Shown here: piece after piece, positions 9,379 through 38,765 of the stretch
Position numbering within the stretch: the first letter of the stretch is position 1
Layout of the letters: each line of letters opens with the position of its first letter
Sequence record: NC_054915.1
Reading direction: 5' to 3' (one strand)
Source: Escherichia phage vB_EcoM_G8
DNA: 64,000 nucleotides
Notes under the pieces: generated by a model
The model's input: only the letters and a program-made list of their open reading frames with translations
The model's database searches: none
What the model was told of the DNA's origin: nothing
Made by a program: the position numbers and the translations under genes

Positions 9379-9849
9379 TTAATCATGTTTCCACACCCCA
9401 TCGGTATTTGACCAAAGTCGCTGATTATCTGATCCTCGCCACAGCTTTTTAGTCGGAAGATTTTTCTCATACTTCCCATCAATAATAACATCAACATATT
9501 TAAGCATTTCTAGTTGTTTAATATCTTCAAACTTATATCCTGCCCACAACCAAATGCTTTTATTGGGATAAAGATTTTTAATAGTTTGAACCACAGAGTG
9601 AATCACGTCTCTGTTATCAGGATAAAGAGGGTCACCTCCGGTTATAGTCAATCCTTCTATATAATCATTATTCAAACATTCAATTAATTGTTCTAGTGTT
9701 TCACCAGTGAATGGAATACCATTTCTAGCATTCCATGTTGATTTATTATAACACCCTTCACATTTATGCAAACAACCCGTAACGAAAAGAACGACCCTGC
9801 AACCAGGGCCATTCACAAAATCGCAAGGATAAAATCTATCGTAATTCAT
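9379..9849 (-). CDS. nrdG: Anaerobic ribonucleotide reductase activase (radical SAM)
   Basis: 156 aa; CxxxCxxC radical-SAM cluster motif (GCLHKCEGCYN); sits directly downstream of nrdD with stop/start overlap. Confidence 0.9.
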   Translation of the reverse strand: MNYDRFYPCDFVNGPGCRVVLFVTGCLHKCEGCYNKSTWNARNGIPFTGETLEQLIECLNNDYIEGLTITGGDPLYPDNRDVIHSVVQTIKNLYPNKSIWLWAGYKFEDIKQLEMLKYVDVIIDGKYEKNLPTKKLWRGSDNQRLWSNTDGVWKHD

Positions 9850-11125
9850 TGATGCTTAACCCTATGCATGATTTCTTTATTTTTACCGAGATTAAATCCG
9901 CGTTCGTTCGGGTTTCCAAGATATCCGCATGTTCTTCTTATTGTGTTCATCTTTTTAGGATCAGTTTCTCCACAAATAGAACAAACAAATCCGTTTTCAG
10001 TAGGAGTCATTTCATGGGTACTTCCGCATGTAAAACATTTATCTACCGGCATGTTAACACCAAAATAATCTAAATGTTGTGCAGCATAATCCCACACAGC
10101 CTCAAGACCTTTTAAGTTATTTTTCATATCAGGAAGTTCAACATAAGAAATGTGACCACCTGTCGCAATGAAATGATATGGCGCTTCACGAGAAATCTTT
10201 TCAAACGGAGTAATATTTTCTTCTACTGAAACATGGAAACTGTTAGTGTACCAGCCTTTATCGGTAACATCTTTTACACTTCCATATTTTTCTGTATCGA
10301 GTTTACAGAAGCGATAACAAAGGTTTTCAGCAGGAGTAGAATATAAACTAAAAGCAAATCCGGTTCTTTCAGTCCACTGTTTAAGATGAGCATTCATTTT
10401 AGTTAAAATTTCTCGTCCAATACCACGACCAACAAGAATATTCAATTCGTGAATACCTATGTATCCTAGGGACACTGAACTTCTACCGTTTTTAAATAAC
10501 TCAATTATATCGTCATCAGGTTTAAGACGAACCCCGAATGCACCTTCTTGGTAAAGAATAGGAGCAACAGTCGCTTTAACTCCTTTTAAGGAATTGATTC
10601 TACACATCAATGCTTCAAAACATAAATCCATTCGTTCATTGAACAATTCGGCAAATTTCTGTTCATTGAACTGTGTTCCAATATAAGAATCTAACGCAAT
10701 ACGAGGAAGATTCAATGTTACAACGCCAAGATTATTACGTCCATCAAGAATTTCATTACCAGTCGAATCTTTCCATACGCTCAAGAAACTACGGCAACCC
10801 ATTGGAGAAACAGGAATAGATGAACCAGTGATAGCTTTATTATTCTTAGCTGAAATAATATCAGGATACATTCTTTTGCTTGCACACTCTAGAGCAAGCT
10901 GCTTAATATCATAGTTCGGATCGTCTTTATAAAGATTAACACCTTCTTCAACGAACATAACAAGTTTAGGGAAAATAGGAGTTATCCCGTCACGACCAAG
11001 ACCTTTAATACGATTTTTCAGAATTGCTTTCTGAATCATTCGTTCAGTCCAGTCAGTTCCCGTACCAAATGTAATTGTTACAAAAGGTGTTTGCCCGTTT
11101 GAACTGAATAACGTGTTCACTTCAT
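9846..11125 (-). CDS. nrdD: Anaerobic ribonucleotide reductase NrdD, exon 2
   Basis: C-terminal glycyl-radical motif RRTCGYLG and Cys cluster; splice junction derived by hand: joining 12159 to 11125 restores the frame and gives a 605-aa product. Confidence 0.85.
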
Positions 11126-11146: not shown

Positions 11147-11923
11147 CTACTTCTCTACCCGTTTATATGAAACAATGTAATTTGGATAATTGTCATCTAA
11201 ACACAAATCTTTAATACGACTTGGGTGGAGTTTTAAATCTTTAGCAGCATCCACAAATGATTTATAGATATTGTCATTTATTTTAACATATTCTGGGACG
11301 GGATGAATTGTTATTTTTATATCTATAACATTTGGATGATTACTAACCTGTTCTTCAGAGCATTTAAGAAATTTTGCAGCTGATTTAAAACTTCTAAATT
11401 TATTTCCGGATTTTAAAGCTATAGAAACAGTCTTTTTAGCCGTTCTACTACCAATATTATTTTTAACATGAGCTTCACTTCTACTATTATTTTTATAATG
11501 CTCAATCAATTTCTCTCGTATCTTATCTTTATGTTTTAAAGATAAGATTTTACCTTTATGGGCATTACTAAGTTTTTGCTTATGTTCTTCTGAATCCGGA
11601 TATTTGTTAAATTTATATCCACCTATAGATTTATTAAGAATAAATTCGTTATTAAAATATTTCCTAATAAGCATTTCTTCATGTTTAAGGGCCGATTCAT
11701 AAGAATCAAAAACTTGAAGAATTATCCACTTAGCTTTATAATCTTTAAGCTTTTCTTTAACAAGCTTAGATGACGAATTGTATTCTTTCCAATTTGTATC
11801 TTTACCATATATAGTTTTGAATTTTTTAAAACCTATATAAAAAGACTTATCAGGAAATCTTACCATATAGGTAAATGCTACAGAATTGGCAAGTTTTAAG
11901 CTTTTTCTTAATTTCCATTTCAT
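11147..11923 (-). CDS. I-TevII: Intron-encoded homing endonuclease, I-TevII-like
   Basis: 258 aa ORF in the 3-prime part of the intron; N-terminal GIY-YIG-like FYIGFKK...NSS; length matches recalled I-TevII. Confidence 0.75.
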   Translation of the reverse strand: MKWKLRKSLKLANSVAFTYMVRFPDKSFYIGFKKFKTIYGKDTNWKEYNSSSKLVKEKLKDYKAKWIILQVFDSYESALKHEEMLIRKYFNNEFILNKSIGGYKFNKYPDSEEHKQKLSNAHKGKILSLKHKDKIREKLIEHYKNNSRSEAHVKNNIGSRTAKKTVSIALKSGNKFRSFKSAAKFLKCSEEQVSNHPNVIDIKITIHPVPEYVKINDNIYKSFVDAAKDLKLHPSRIKDLCLDDNYPNYIVSYKRVEK

Positions 11924-11955: not shown

Positions 11956-12158
11956 TAAACAGCTGCATGTCACCATGCAGTTCAGACTATATCTTCAACT
12001 CTTAGAGTTGTCTGCCGTTTCGGGTCGCTTGACCCTACTCCCTTACATTCATCAGGGATAGTCGTTGGGCATTTACAGCTACTGCTGATTTAGCAACGGA
12101 TTGTCTCAGTGAGAGTTTCCCGTTTTAGGCAGATTTTACATGAGCTTGACTTACGTTA

Positions 12159-12696
12159 ACTCATAAGCTTGGAATGCATCGTATACGTCTTTTTCTGTTT
12201 TAGATTGAGCATAATTCAACGCATCAGCGATTTGCCATTTTTCTGCATCCTCAATATGTTTTGCATAGGTGCGTTTAACATAAGGAGAAAGTACTTTATC
12301 TACATTCGCAAATGTAGTTCCGCCATACTGGTGTGAAGCAACTTGTGCAGTAATTTGTGCCATAATTGCAGTAGCAACACCAATCGATTTAGGCGTTTCA
12401 ATTTGAGCATTGCCTAATTTAAATCCGTTCTCAAGCATCCCCTTTAAATCGACTAAACAGCAATTAGTAAAAGGCAATGATATACTGTAATCTAAATCAT
12501 GAAAATGAATTAATCCAACATTATGGGCATTTACAATATGACTTGGAAGAATACGACAAGCGATATGTTTAGAAACAATACCGGCCATTAAATCTCTTTT
12601 TGTTGGAAAGACGCGAGAATCTTTGTTGGCGTTTTCTGTATTTAATTCTTTATCTTTATTTGAAATAAAATTTAAAACATCTTTTTCTAAAGACAT
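12159..12696 (-). CDS. nrdD: Anaerobic ribonucleotide reductase NrdD, exon 1
   Basis: N-terminal ATP-cone-like region; frame ends at intron stop TAA 12151-12153; exon end set by P1 pairing. Confidence 0.85.
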
Positions 12697-13508
12697 AATT
12701 CTAATTTATCCTTTTGAAATTCTTCGTCTAAATATGGGTTCCAACCCATTTTAAACCTTTTGATGAAATTATCAATTCTAAATTTCGGTAAGTTTAAATC
12801 CACAAAAATAGATGATTTACTTTTAAAATCTGGACTTAAATAATCATATAAAATTTCTGCGTATTTTAACCATAATATACAAGTACCAGATTTAATTGCT
12901 CTCGGAGTTTTCCAAGGTTTTACACCATACATCGGATTTCCACTTCCTTTATGCCTGATAGAAGATGAAATTCCAATTTTAATTTTAGCTTCCTTTGTAT
13001 GCGAAAATCCACGATGTGGATTTTCTTTCCAGTATTTTTTAGAAGCTTCTGATATTTTCTTTCTGGCTAAATTAGTATGATGCTTTCCATAAAATCCATG
13101 ATTTTTGCCTTTATTACGATTTCTTTTAATCATGGTTATTGATTGCTTTTCTCTAGTTTCTTTAGAAGGAGAAACACCGTACGTTGTAAATTGACCATCA
13201 GCATATGCTAAATTAAAATACTCTTTATTCCATATATCTTTTTCTATATTCTTTTGAAATTCAGCTTCAATGCTAGTTATTTGCTCATCTCCGACTAATT
13301 GAAAATATAATATTTCAACTTTCGGCGTTTCTTTCAACAGGGCTTTTTGAAATTCGGAAGATGACGAAGACGAATAATAAAATTTACCATTTTTATCAAT
13401 AATATTCGTTCCGTCAAAAGTGCAATTAGTTTTACTTCCAATGTAATAATATGGCGGGGTTTTAGCATTAATTCTATTAATAAATGATAGTTTATATACT
13501 ACATTCAT
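12687..13508 (-). CDS. GIY-YIG homing endonuclease-like protein (Seg-type)
   Basis: 273 aa; N-terminal YYYIGSK...; NUMOD3-like repeats (GKNHGFYGKHHT, GSGNPMYGVKPW); ATG overlaps the gene 49 stop as ATGA. Confidence 0.7.
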   Translation of the reverse strand: MNVVYKLSFINRINAKTPPYYYIGSKTNCTFDGTNIIDKNGKFYYSSSSSSEFQKALLKETPKVEILYFQLVGDEQITSIEAEFQKNIEKDIWNKEYFNLAYADGQFTTYGVSPSKETREKQSITMIKRNRNKGKNHGFYGKHHTNLARKKISEASKKYWKENPHRGFSHTKEAKIKIGISSSIRHKGSGNPMYGVKPWKTPRAIKSGTCILWLKYAEILYDYLSPDFKSKSSIFVDLNLPKFRIDNFIKRFKMGWNPYLDEEFQKDKLELCL

Positions 13509-28341: not shown

Positions 28342-28620
28342 TTATTCTTTAAATCTGATCAATTTATTCATAGACTTTGAAACTTCTGCACGAACCTCAT
28401 GTAAGTTTTTAAGCTGTTCAAGACGCTGTTCATAGTAAGCAATTTCATCTTCTTCGAGACAGTCCTGTGAATCTTCTTTAAGATAGCGTGCATAGTCCTG
28501 GAAAGCTTTACGGACTACTTCCTGGAAGTCATCAAGACTTTGAATTTTCTTAGGAGCGGCAGATACACGACGAGGGGCAGTATAATACTCATAACCAAAC
28601 CCTGCACTTAATTGAGCCAT
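28342..28620 (-). CDS. Hypothetical acidic protein
   Basis: Start taken at the ATG sharing one base with the upstream stop (TAATG); 92 aa. Confidence 0.4.
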
Positions 28621-28886
28621 TAGTATTTTTCCTCTGGTTGGAACACAGCACGGCAAGCCCACATACTTGCTTCTTTGAGTTTCGTTTTAGCAATAGTTAA
28701 CTGATCGAGGCTTTCGGCGTAATTCTTCGCGAGTTCATCATCTTCACAGCTATCAAATGCTTCCCAGAATTCATCGTATAAAGCGTCAAAGATAAGTCCT
28801 AAACGAACTTCAGCGTCTTTGATAGCATTCACTTTACCGATTTTCTCTTCAGTATGCGGCTTATAACCCTTAATATCTTCAATCAT
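28620..28886 (-). CDS. Hypothetical small acidic protein
   Basis: 88 aa from ATG at 28886, which overlaps the stop of the upstream ORF (ATGATTGA). Confidence 0.4.
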
Positions 28887-29100
28887 ATTTGACTTCCTCA
28901 CCAGTACATAAATCATATTCAACTAAACGAATAGGTTCATGAATGCCATATCCCTGAACAGAAATTTCTGTCGTAGGATAAATTCCATCAATATCACCCA
29001 TATTCCACGCTTCGTTAAATTGCTGTTCGCCTGAATTACTAAACCATTCGGCGAAAGCATTTAGCACATCTTCAGAACCTTCAATAATTATCTTTGCCAT
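28879..29100 (-). CDS. Hypothetical small protein
   Basis: Minus-strand ORF 73 aa directly downstream of the GrcA-like gene. Confidence 0.4.
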   Translation of the reverse strand: MAKIIIEGSEDVLNAFAEWFSNSGEQQFNEAWNMGDIDGIYPTTEISVQGYGIHEPIRLVEYDLCTGEEVKYD

Positions 29101-29462
29101 TACAAACTCTCGGTAAAGGTACGAGCGATAACGTCGCGCTGCTGTTCCGGAGTCAGAGAGTTAAAGCGAACTGCATAACCGGATACACGGATGGTCAGCT
29201 GCGGATATTTTTCCGGATGCTTAACTGCATCTTCCAGAGTTTCACGACGCAGAACGTTAACGTTCAGGTGTTGACCACCTTCAATTTTAACTGTAGGCTG
29301 TTGCTCAATTTCAATTTCACGGGCATGCAAACCATAGAAAATTTCTGGGTCTACAAAAGAGTCCTCTTTAAAGGTTTTAGAGACAATAATTCGTGCTTGA
29401 ATACCATCTTCAAAATAAATAGTACCTTTATGTGTGCCTTCAAGAATTTGATATGCTTTCAT
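29100..29462 (-). CDS. Autonomous glycyl-radical cofactor (GrcA/YfiD-like; T4 Y06I-type)
   Basis: 120 aa; C-terminal half ([59 protein letters not shown]) is near-identical to my recollection of E. coli GrcA, including glycyl-radical motif RVSGY. Confidence 0.85.
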
Positions 29463-29469
29463 ATAAACC

Positions 29470-29799
29470 TCAATTAGAAAATAAATTTATCCAAGATTGT
29501 TCTTTAATTAAAAATGGCTCAGAATCATATGCCATTAAACTCTGTGTGATTAGTCCTTTAAAAGGCCCATCAATAAATTCCATGGTAAAATATGGAATTT
29601 TATTCATTAGCCGTGCATTAGGAGCAGTACATAAAACTCTGCATCCTTTGAATACACCTTTTTGTAATTTGTATTGCTTGGGATAAAATTCGCTCAAAAT
29701 GTTATTATTTGCTAAAATTTCAAAATGATTCACCAATTTATTTTTAATAGTTTTTGGCGAAAAATAAAGATATTCGAAAAGCTGAGTGTCTGTCATCAT
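29470..29799 (-). CDS. Hypothetical protein
   Basis: Start taken at ATG overlapping the upstream stop (ATGATGA); 109 aa. Confidence 0.4.
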
Positions 29800-37405: not shown

Positions 37406-37482
<77 letters not shown>

Positions 37483-37485
37483 TAA

Positions 37486-38151
37486 TTAAAATTTCATTTT
37501 TCGACCTTTAAACCATCCTTCTGGAATTGGGTCAGTTTTCTTAATACGTTTAGAAACTTTTTCATCTAATGAATGAATCCACATCATACCAAATTGAGAA
37601 TTCTTTTCGCCCTGTTGGTGTTTATTTCTGGCGTGAGATTCTTTCATTTTATTAATAGTTTCAGGAGTATGGGTCTTACCCAAGAAAGATTTAGTATTTA
37701 AAAATTTCTCTCTATACTCAGAATTATCCCAAAGCTGTTTAAACCTTTCTGAACCCATTTTACGATATTTTTCTTTAAGGTCTGGGTCGTTCTCAAATCT
37801 GGTTTTAAAAGCGGCAGCTCCTTTTAAGGAAGCTTCTTTCTTTTTATCCAAATATTCTTTAGTGTTTAAATGGTCCCAACCACCTTCACCACCTAATTTC
37901 AAATTATAAACATCAGGGCGCTTTAAAAACTCTTCAGTCACAATATTCTTTTCTGACTCAAACATAGAGGTTTTATCGTCAAAGAACTCTAATATTTCTT
38001 TAGAAAAATTTTCTATACCATACTTATCTTGGGCTCTTTTTAATAATTTACCAGAACCCATATATCCATCATCTAAATTTTCGGTAGAATGAGCGCCTAT
38101 ATAGATTTTATTATTAATTTTATTTGTTATTTTATAAGTGTAATGGAACAT
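37486..38151 (-). CDS. segB: GIY-YIG homing endonuclease SegB-like
   Basis: 221 aa; N-terminal YKITNKINNKIYIGAHS GIY-YIG motif; sits between tRNA-Arg and the other tRNAs. Confidence 0.8.
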   Translation of the reverse strand: MFHYTYKITNKINNKIYIGAHSTENLDDGYMGSGKLLKRAQDKYGIENFSKEILEFFDDKTSMFESEKNIVTEEFLKRPDVYNLKLGGEGGWDHLNTKEYLDKKKEASLKGAAAFKTRFENDPDLKEKYRKMGSERFKQLWDNSEYREKFLNTKSFLGKTHTPETINKMKESHARNKHQQGEKNSQFGMMWIHSLDEKVSKRIKKTDPIPEGWFKGRKMKF

Positions 38152-38178
38152 AAATATCTCCTATTTCTAGGAGTATTT
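38152..38178 (-). promoter_or_regulatory. Hairpin sequestering the segB ribosome-binding site, with late-promoter-like CATAAATA
   Basis: Minus strand CUCCUA-GAAA-UAGGAG stem-loop, AGGAG in the 3-prime strand 8 nt before ATG; CATAAATA immediately upstream. Confidence 0.45.
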
Positions 38179-38192
38179 ATGTTCTCAAAATA

Positions 38193-38264
38193 TGGCCCTG
38201 GGTGGAATTGAACCACCATCTGGCGATTATGAGTCGCTTGCTTGAACCTTCCAGCTACAGGGCC
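38193..38264 (-). tRNA. tRNA-Ile (anticodon CAU)
   Basis: Hand-folded: 72 nt, anticodon loop CUCAUAA, T-arm GGUUCAAUUCC. Confidence 0.8.
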
Positions 38265-38270
38265 TTGATA

Positions 38271-38343
38271 TGCTGATTGACGGAATCGAACCGCCGACGT
38301 CCTCATTACAAGTGAGGTGCTCTACCTACTGAGCTAAATCAGC
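38271..38343 (-). tRNA. tRNA-Thr (anticodon UGU)
   Basis: Hand-folded: 73 nt, acceptor GCUGAUU/AAUCAGC, anticodon loop CUUGUAA. Confidence 0.85.
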
Positions 38344-38350
38344 GAAATTA

Positions 38351-38437
38351 CGGAGGCGATAGGATTTGAACCTATGAGTCGCCGGAGCGACTGCCGGTTT
38401 TCAAGACCGGTGCATTAAACCACTCTGCCACGCCTCC
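38351..38437 (-). tRNA. tRNA-Ser (anticodon UGA)
   Basis: Hand-folded: 87 nt with long variable arm, acceptor GGAGGCG/CGCCUCC, anticodon loop CUUGAAA. Confidence 0.85.
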
Positions 38438-38439
38438 AG

Positions 38440-38513
38440 TCTCCGTGGCAGGATTTGAACCTACGACATTCTGCTCCCAAAGCAGACGCTCTACCAAACT
38501 GAGCTACACGGAG
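38440..38513 (-). tRNA. tRNA-Pro (anticodon UGG)
   Basis: Hand-folded: 74 nt, anticodon loop UUUGGGA; abuts tRNA-Ser (dimeric precursor arrangement). Confidence 0.8.
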
Positions 38514-38525
38514 TAAATTAAATTT

Positions 38526-38597
<72 letters not shown>

Positions 38598-38603
38598 AAA
38601 CTT

Positions 38604-38690
38604 TGGTACGAGAAGTGGGACTCGAACCCACAAGGAAATCATTCCGCAGCATTTTAAGTGCTGTGCCTTTACCAATTTGACCATTCTCGC
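38604..38690 (-). tRNA. tRNA-Leu (anticodon UAA)
   Basis: Hand-folded: 87 nt with long variable arm, anticodon loop CUUAAAA, encoded CCA. Confidence 0.85.
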
Positions 38691-38691
38691 G

Positions 38692-38765
38692 CTGGGAATA
38701 AAGGACTCGAACCTTTGCATCTAGCAGTCAAAGTGCTGTGCCTTTACCAATTTGGCTAATTCCCA
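38692..38765 (-). tRNA. tRNA-Gln (anticodon UUG)
   Basis: Hand-folded: 74 nt, acceptor UGGGAAU/AUUCCCA, anticodon region CUUUGAC; 1 nt from tRNA-Leu. Confidence 0.8.

Follow-up and report, generated by a model that had tools for sequence, protein, structure and literature searches.

Host-identical DNA in the vs.6 gene of Escherichia phage vB_EcoM_G8 and its probable origin by gene conversion with grcA

The vs.6 Gene and Its Product

The DNA considered here is a stretch of 64,000 nucleotides (nt) from the genome of Escherichia phage vB_EcoM_G8 (NC_054915.1), a Tequatrovirus; the whole stretch is referred to as the window. On its minus strand, at 29100..29462, the list of open reading frames (ORFs) contains a gene for a protein of 120 amino acids (start codon ATG at 29460-29462, stop codon TAA at 29100-29102), which is of the vs.6/Y06I type and resembles grcA (yfiD), the Escherichia coli gene for a spare glycyl-radical domain. 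A tract of 172 nt in the 3′ half of this phage gene is identical, letter for letter, to grcA of the E. coli chromosome, and it is with this identity and its likely cause that the present report deals.

The initial annotation had taken the gene for a homolog of T4 Y06I and hence for not new, and rightly so: vs.6 of the window is 98.6% identical in nucleotide sequence to T4 vs.6 (NP_049730; 5 differences, the proteins differing at 2 of 120 residues) and 100% identical to the gene of phage vB_Eco_BCPEco_001. T4 vs.6, named "autonomous glycyl radical cofactor GrcA" in RefSeq, is the ortholog of the window gene, with which it has the neighbors vs.7, vs.5, vs.4 and regB and also the host-identical tract in common. 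In a comparison of six T4-like genomes by Nolan et al. (PMC1524935), the gene was kept in all six.

Gly_radical is the sole Pfam domain of the protein (amino acids 60-101, E = 2.5e-18). In it the translation shows the glycyl-radical motif RVSGY at amino acids 92-96 (29175..29189, minus strand), with Gly95 encoded by GGT at 29178-29180; by alignment, Gly95 corresponds to Gly102 of GrcA and to Gly734 of PflB, the pyruvate formate-lyase (PFL) of E. coli. In a phmmer search of the PDB, amino acids 22-120 were aligned with residues 28-127 of E. coli GrcA (6OWR, E = 9e-42). Residues 58-120 align with residues 697-759 of PflB (E = 5e-26), the C-terminal radical domain that is the piece replaced by the spare part, and phrog_1209 matches Vs.6 from end to end (E = 6e-63). 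The C-terminal 60 or so residues had been described as nearly identical to those of GrcA, RVSGY included; residues 61-120 are in fact identical to GrcA residues 68-127 at 60 of 60 positions. Like Vs.6, GrcA (YfiD) is a small autonomous protein with an RVSGY motif, and the two differ in their N-terminal halves, which are approximately 34-36% identical and of which that of the phage is 7 residues shorter, and in their loci, vs.6 lying in a cluster of early phage genes and the bacterial gene at ung-grcA. Judged by its size, its lone Gly_radical domain, its RVSGY motif and its PflB-type C-terminus, the predicted Vs.6 protein has the features by which a spare part of the GrcA type is structurally defined.

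The gene is tightly packed. A candidate Shine-Dalgarno sequence, GAGG at 29468..29471 (minus strand), which was read from the sequence and whose function is putative, overlaps the stop codon TGA (29470-29472) of the upstream gene vs.7, and the TAA of vs.6 overlaps by one base the ATG with which the following gene (28879-29100) starts. This packing with both neighbor genes suggests translational coupling and may constrain the last codons of vs.6, where the host tract ends.

A Tract Identical to E. coli grcA and Its Two Junctions

Three segments can be distinguished in vs.6, all of them on the minus strand. The 5′ segment (gene nt 1-178, 29285..29462; amino acids 1-59 and part of codon 60) is of phage type by its GC content, by its GC content at third codon positions (GC3) and by the lack of a match to grcA, and encodes what corresponds to GrcA's disordered N-terminal half. 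It is followed by the presumed conversion tract (gene nt 179-350, 29113..29284), in which 172 of 172 consecutive bases agree exactly with nt 200-371 of chromosomal E. coli grcA, and which codes for the whole of residues 61-116 and for parts of codons 60 and 117, all in the structured glycyl-radical domain. The 3′ junction zone (29100..29112), as delimited by codon alignment, begins with the third base of codon 117 and further comprises codons 118-120 together with the stop codon.

Both junctions lie inside vs.6. The 5′ junction, at gene nt 178/179, is marked by four consecutive mismatches (AAAA in the phage vs. CGCG in the host). Beyond the 3′ junction, at nt 350/351, the last four codons of vs.6 have four synonymous differences (ACC GAG AGT TTG vs. 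ACT GAA AGC CTG in E. coli), and the DNA 3′ of the gene bears no relation to that which flanks grcA in E. coli.

When vs.6 was compared by blastn with 5,426 complete E. coli genomes, gene nt 179-363 were the only part that could be aligned, with an identity to grcA of 97.8% in the best-matching genomes and of 95-99% in all 5,426, and nt 1-178 gave no alignment to any of them. Where the codons of this 5′ segment can be aligned with those of grcA, the nucleotide identity is 49% and the amino acid identity 14/39, and a global DNA alignment of the segment to grcA scored not above shuffled sequence. A megablast search of the whole 64-kb window against the same genomes returned the tract as its only match, the targets being grcA and, more weakly, pflB. 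That pflB was the donor of the DNA was considered and rejected, its 3′ end being only about 80% identical to the tract and 12 of its last 60 residues being different. The host type is specific: where grcA of E. coli and Klebsiella pneumoniae differ, the window has the E. coli-type base at 20/20 sites within the tract and at 21/22 sites over gene nt 179-363.

Gene nt 1-160 of the window are identical to those of T4. The 19 nt 5′ of the junction (gene nt 160-178, 29285-29303) vary among phages that are otherwise very close relatives (L164, KPV15 and 17-11), and in this short stretch a host base is found where relatives lack it, at nt 165 in T4 and at nt 165, 171 and 178 in KPV15. The host bases scattered over nt 160-178 may mean that conversion tracts reached in patches into sequence that is poorly matched.

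Base Composition and Codon Usage

The step in composition within vs.6 that the initial annotation had pointed out is real, the GC content rising from 0.337 in gene nt 1-178 to 0.494 in nt 179-350; it is located in the middle of the gene, at nt 178/179 of 363, and not after the first third, as had been stated. The mean GC content of the 64-kb window is 0.349 (standard deviation 0.046 in windows of 172 nt), and only 0.34% of these 172-nt windows reach the value of the tract, those with the highest GC content, exceeding that of the tract, lying at about 38200 in a cluster of tRNA genes. GC3 rises as well, from 0.20 in the 5′ half of vs.6 to 0.44 in the tract, compared to a background of 0.235 in 57-codon windows of the other ORFs, of which 0.7% reach the tract value. 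The proposed refutation, a uniform composition on proper calculation, is thus not what was found, the tract belonging to the top 0.3-0.7% of the window background. The codons of the tract are those of the host, as had also been noted: CTG encodes 5 of the 6 leucines (6% elsewhere in the window), CCG all 3 prolines (13%) and CGT or CGC all 6 arginines.

Identity Beyond Protein Conservation and the Direction of Transfer

For comparison with E. coli, grcA was gathered from 80 other bacterial species. The protein segment encoded by the tract is invariant across many Enterobacteriaceae, which is what speaks for the assumption that no DNA was transferred at all and that the codons of a highly conserved protein converged under selection for expression in the host. 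The bacteria that encode the same 60 residues are, however, only 86-93% identical to E. coli in the nucleotide sequence of this segment, the nearest genus outside Escherichia being represented by Citrobacter amalonaticus with 92.8%. If each site matched with this frequency, 172 matches in a row would have a probability of approximately 3e-6. Phage RB16 encodes the identical 60 residues at a nucleotide identity of only 83%. Moreover, the sites that discriminate between E. coli and K. pneumoniae show opposite patterns in phages of the two hosts (21/22 E. coli-type in the window vs. 19/22 K. pneumoniae-type in Jiaodavirus KPV15). We regard convergence as exceedingly improbable. The other refutation proposed in the initial annotation, a nucleotide identity to host grcA no higher than conservation of the protein would give, is likewise not what was found.

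Identity alone does not indicate a direction, and E. coli could in principle have taken the 3′ half of its grcA from a T-even phage. Three findings indicate that the transfer was from host to phage: the composition of the tract is host-like, grcA, situated at the ung-grcA locus, is found in 5,426/5,426 genomes of E. coli, and the 3′ half of grcA diverges with the relatedness of the genera, its identity to E. coli being 98.9% in another Escherichia species, 92.8% in Citrobacter and 86-91% in the others. In addition, Klebsiella phages have the Klebsiella version (see below). The reverse transfer, too, is so improbable that it hardly needs to be reckoned with, and the 3′ half of vs.6 is, judged from its sequence, host-derived DNA.

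Probably an Older Phage Gene Rather than a New Fusion

The initial annotation had interpreted vs.6 as a chimera that arose by acquisition of host grcA sequence. For the 3′ half this holds, as the exact match over 172 nt and the host codons indicate; a fusion in the proper sense it is not, the 5′ half being itself a likely GrcA homolog. A profile-profile comparison of the N-terminal halves of phage and bacterial GrcA yielded a probability of 92.7% (E = 4e-7), 34% of 41 columns being identical, and the N-terminal half of Vs.6 is therefore likely to be homologous to the N-terminus of GrcA.

Genes of full length and of phage type throughout, that is vs.6 without a host tract, are found in phages CC31, PG7, RB43, RB16, KP15, ECD7 and MP1 and among T5-like homologs. 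The identity of their 3′ halves is 63-83% with E. coli grcA and 70-84% with the best host of the panel, and the longest stretches in which such a phage-type gene agrees exactly with any gene of a host measure 17-35 nt. The genes of the CC31/PG7 type, for example, are 74-79% identical to E. coli grcA and have a GC3 of 0.22-0.30. Since the 5′ half is probably a diverged GrcA homolog and since other T4-like lineages have a full-length vs.6 free of the tract, the mosaic is better understood as gene conversion of an older phage gene than as a new fusion.

In YfiD, residues 61-127 fold like residues 693-759 of PFL, and residues 1-60 are disordered but help in binding (PMC8683613). The part of vs.6 that was replaced coincides almost exactly with this structured half.

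The E. coli-Type Tract in Other T-Even Phages

The junction was to be compared among T4-like phages according to the initial annotation. The comparison showed the 5′ junction to be the same in all E. coli-type phages examined, and the mosaic is not peculiar to this phage, being found also in T4 and about 640 other sequenced phage genomes. When the 172-nt E. coli tract was searched for by BLAST in GenBank phages, 372 records matched with at least 99% identity, 269 with 95-99%, 2 with 90-95% and 107 with 80-90%, the last, among the matches listed, being Klebsiella phages at 86-88%. All of the listed matches of at least 95% are T-even phages isolated on Escherichia, Shigella or Yersinia, and every such record whose taxonomy was retrieved is a Tequatrovirus or a Mosigvirus. 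These population counts are BLAST summaries; an exact 77-nt pattern from the tract matched only 4 contigs in IMG/VR, which is not enough to describe a population.

That host reads were mis-assembled into the phage genome is conceivable because phage preparations contain contaminating host DNA. Against such an artefact stand the continuous reading frame, the presence of the same mosaic in the T4 reference and in about 640 independently sequenced isolates, and the phage-specific sequence of the 3′ codons and of both flanks, which together leave it practically no probability.

In T4 and in the other tequatroviruses and mosigviruses examined, the 5′ junction reads ...AAAA followed by TTGAAGGTGGT, and the tracts have between 0 and 5 scattered mismatches to E. 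coli. T4 has host-type bases two sites further 3′ (nt 351 and 354) and one at nt 165, and its only non-synonymous differences from the window are R73H inside the tract and Q54P just upstream. Altogether 20 distinct substitutions were found in the phage tracts, of which 19 are synonymous; 12 are from GC to AT and 6 from AT to GC.

Tequatroviruses isolated on Yersinia (e.g., fPS-65, NC_055724, and phiD1, HE956711) carry the E. coli tract at 99-100% identity and not a Yersinia one, which hints at E. coli as their present or recent main host.

Klebsiella Phages and Other Hosts

The grcA sequence of K. pneumoniae was taken from CP125156.1, a chromosomal replicon of 5.37 Mb that is entered as a plasmid in PLSDB. 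(LR134122.1, likewise labelled a plasmid there, is a chromosomal fragment of Klebsiella aerogenes and also provided a host grcA.) Klebsiella phages carry a corresponding tract of their own: in KPV15, about 158 nt beginning with GAAGGCGGT agree with K. pneumoniae grcA at all sites but one, and the IMG/VR contig L076 has no mismatch to it over nt 199-344. The 5′ junction of this Klebsiella-type tract coincides in position with that of the E. coli phages, and its 3′ junction lies approximately 20-25 nt ahead of the stop codon. At the 22 sites that discriminate between E. coli and K. pneumoniae, the window has 21 bases of E. coli type, 17 of these sites being synonymous, Mosigvirus RPN187 has 22 and KPV15 has 19 consecutive bases of K. 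pneumoniae type; CC31, KP15, RB43, ECD7 and MP1 are mixed.

Klebsiella pneumoniae grcA matches 77 phage records at 95-99%, among those listed all of them Klebsiella phages, and E. coli phages at 85-88%. The latter value is the divergence of the two hosts, the number of synonymous substitutions per synonymous site (dS) being 0.57 between grcA of E. coli and K. pneumoniae and 0.62 between the tracts of their phages. The tracts of the jiaodaviruses have from 1 to 13 mismatches to K. pneumoniae.

The homologs from Karamvirus, Pseudotevenvirus, Slopekvirus, Krischvirus, Morganella and T5-like phages were compared with 82 host genes, and none of these agrees with them exactly over a long run.

Several side observations concern these phages. 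At nt 219, 225, 282, 294 and 306 of the tract, phage 17-11 departs from K. pneumoniae, and at 5/5 of these sites it has the base of Pseudocitrobacter grcA; two of the five are found also in Roth20 and PKO111. These bases may stem from a second donor species. Relative to 17-11, KPV15 vs.6 lacks one base in a stretch of five T (gene nt ~123, about 1610-1625 of the KPV15 sequence used) and its reading frame is thereby broken, which is either a sequencing error or the mark of a pseudogene. The IMG/VR contig L022 (gene 1354-1893), one of six related human-associated phage contigs (L020-L025), has an exact run of 56 nt and a segment with few mismatches to Haemophilus grcA that its sister contigs lack, which is suggestive only; phages of an unrelated group could here have another tract specific to their host. 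A seeming Yersinia-matched phage gene on contig L030 (IMGVR_UViG_2706794630_000006, 19 kb) was rejected, since it is a typical bacterial grcA of Yersinia type (N-terminus MITGIQITKA...) on a contig labelled viral.

How the Tract May Have Arisen

The simplest history would be a single ancient chimera, that is, one transfer in the common ancestor of Tequatrovirus and Mosigvirus and one in Jiaodavirus, with the tract since held by purifying selection or a low mutation rate. It would account for the identical 5′ junction in all E. coli-type phages examined, and selection on the protein is indeed very strong, as the 19 synonymous substitutions among 20 in the tracts indicate. Selection on the protein leaves synonymous sites unprotected, however, and at these sites the two halves of the gene behave quite differently. 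Between the window and RPN187 there are 11 synonymous differences in the 5′ half of vs.6 (dS 0.38) and 0 differences in 42 synonymous sites of the tract, where 12.7 would be expected (P = 3e-7). Nor is the tract immutable, with 0-5 synonymous changes per genome, and still it equals the present-day E. coli allele. A single ancient chimera is therefore very improbable.

Alternatively, E. coli grcA could have been copied into a phage once, as host DNA would have been once per host species, and the converted tract could then have spread by recombination between phages in co-infected cells. T-even phages recombine freely in mixed infections, the region around vs.6 is mosaic between relatives, and several Mosigvirus tracts have the same two substitutions. 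In such a spread, flanking phage sequence should usually come along, yet the identity between Tequatrovirus and Mosigvirus is confined to the zone homologous to the host: the DNA flanking it is 50-93% identical between the window and RPN187, and the island of identity begins at most about 9 nt from the host junction, ends in the last four codons and so coincides with the host-identical tract. At the four sites of the 3′ junction at least six combinations of host and phage bases are found among the phages, and these are not nested. Furthermore, close relatives among the Klebsiella phages differ specifically inside the tract, one of them having host bases: KPV15 and 17-11 differ at 10 sites, all of them in gene nt 162-306, and at 8 of these KPV15 has the base of the host. 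Spread from phage to phage is, in our estimate, unlikely, its probability being the largest of those of the alternatives considered here.

We consider it highly probable that vs.6 is the phage's GrcA-type spare part and that the half of the gene encoding the radical domain has repeatedly been replaced by gene conversion with grcA of the infected host. The starting point would have been a full-length, AT-rich vs.6 homolog, held for long in the phage lineage. During infection, homologous recombination would exchange the structured half of it for chromosomal grcA of the host, with the tract filling the whole zone in which phage and host gene are similar enough to pair; it would be limited on the 5′ side by the AAAA/CGCG block of mismatches and on the 3′ side by the end of homology a few codons before the stop codon. 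Conversion would have occurred more than once, from E. coli into Tequatrovirus and Mosigvirus and from K. pneumoniae into Jiaodavirus, and a converted tract would then drift slowly toward the composition of the phage. T4 has an efficient system of homologous recombination and rescues markers from homologous inserts in plasmids.

Besides the spread from phage to phage, several points weigh against this explanation. The T-even phages break down the DNA of their host early in infection. What the sequences show is the tract with its junctions, its host specificity and its contrast to the flanks; the recombination between host and phage at vs.6 is read from them and not observed directly, and its mechanism, its recurrence within a genus and a selective advantage of matching the host are what we infer from them. 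The recurrence among the E. coli phages is deduced from about 13 fully read sequences together with BLAST summaries and not from a dated phylogeny of all genomes. The 5′ junctions of the E. coli-type and Klebsiella-type tracts fall on the same nucleotide, for which loss of homology is the only explanation that we can offer. Salmonella enterica grcA is matched by no GenBank phage at 95% or more by BLAST, and a third host-specific tract was not established; it follows from the same result that high identity to phages is not a general property of grcA. For the tract of Klebsiella oxytoca phage PKO111, the search for a donor among the host genes gave K. pneumoniae, at 90.6%, as the best match, and the donor was not found. 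Finally, Vs.6 of the window scores 154.9 bits with the NCBIfam model TIGR04365 spare_glycyl (profile positions 25-126 of 126), which is below the cutoff of 170 bits because its N-terminus is divergent; the protein is therefore to be filed under Vs.6/Y06I (phrog_1209), a phage branch with the mode of action of GrcA, and not as an equivalog of bacterial GrcA.

A farther-reaching form of gene conversion with the host is put forward here only tentatively, as a possibility about which we are somewhat doubtful. The radical-domain half of vs.6 might be recopied continually from whichever enterobacterium the phage multiplies in. This process would be self-reinforcing, each conversion restoring homology and thereby easing the next, and selection would keep the exact match to PflB and its activase PflA. 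The gene would then be the one place where the strictly lytic T-even phages, with their hydroxymethylcytosine-modified DNA, recombine with the host chromosome in nature, and the tract would be a record of the recent host species.

Function and Relation to Known Systems

According to PMC8683613, which in this relies on Wagner et al. (2001), T4 Y06I is given a glycyl radical by PFL activase and restores PFL that was cleaved by oxygen, PFL being the only partner reported in the account given there. PFL is also the expected partner of Vs.6 of the window because the radical domain is identical to that of host GrcA, which is of the PFL type. After cleavage of host PflB by oxygen at Gly734, host PflA would place the radical on Gly95 of the phage protein, whose C-terminal domain would stand in for the lost C-terminus of PflB. 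The fermentative supply of acetyl-CoA and ATP could thus go on during infection, when the genes of the host are shut off.

The initial annotation had also called attention to nrdD and nrdG, encoding the other glycyl-radical system, and had suggested that the vs.6 product could repair NrdD. Both genes do lie in the window, all on the minus strand. The gene nrdG (radical SAM) is at 9379-9849, and nrdD is split into exon 1 at 12151-12696 and exon 2 at 9846-11039. In the same locus are a group I intron core (11963-12194, 105 bits with Rfam) and an endonuclease-like ORF of 258 amino acids with weak GIY-YIG/NUMOD matches (11147-11923); the ORF next to exon 1 (12687-13508) contains a NUMOD3 motif. 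A repair of NrdD found no support: BLASTP of Vs.6 against the exon 2 product of the window, which holds the C-terminal radical domain, gave no significant similarity (E = 1.3), and the C-terminal half aligns with PflB 697-759 instead. NrdD, as known from T4, and Vs.6 have in common the Pfam Gly_radical domain and a G-Y radical site, but NrdD ends with ...RRTCGYLGNPNERGFNLGK after two CxxC pairs of cysteines, and the sequence around its radical glycine is unrelated to that of Vs.6.

A close precedent is in cyanophages, where psbA and psbD, host metabolic genes carried by T4-like phages, have patches of host-type G+C content and sequence that were interpreted as exchange of segments between the copies of host and phage (Zeidner et al., 2005; Sullivan et al., 2006, PMC1484495). 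The case of vs.6 differs from it in that the host is an enteric bacterium and the DNA of the phage is heavily modified, and in that one block only is concerned, which has defined end-points and agrees in every letter with a named host species, and of which sister genera carry the versions of different hosts.

Significance

The vs.6 gene and its biochemical role are already known. A full-text search of the literature found descriptions of both and none of a nucleotide mosaic or of host-specific tracts, although an earlier mention is possible. The phenomenon is of a known kind, intragenic recombination between host and phage, but the present example is unusually clean and comes from the phage family that has been studied best: viruses that are virulent, destroy the DNA of their host and modify their own still bear a letter-perfect piece of the host chromosome.

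If conversion is ongoing, vs.6 would provide a simple natural assay for homologous recombination from host to phage, and the tract would serve as a marker of recent host history, for example in the tequatroviruses isolated on Yersinia that have an E. coli tract. Ongoing conversion would also suggest that the spare part must closely match PflB and PflA of the host, and it would supply natural variants, with identical radical domains and divergent N-terminal halves, for studying how the disordered half of GrcA recognizes damaged PFL. In practice, the 172-nt tract is the one place in the genomes of therapeutic T-even phages that gives a true match when host reads are filtered out or when the genomes are screened for host genes.

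Other Features of the Window

Two genes downstream of vs.6, at the position of T4 vs.4, lies an ORF for 100 amino acids (28620-28922, minus strand) in which Pfam finds the Acb2/Tad1 hairpin domain (E = 1e-19), the domain of the Acb2/Tad1 anti-defence proteins. At 37406-38765, likewise on the minus strand, eight tRNA genes (Arg, Met, Thr, Ser, Pro, Gly, Leu and Gln) form a cluster.

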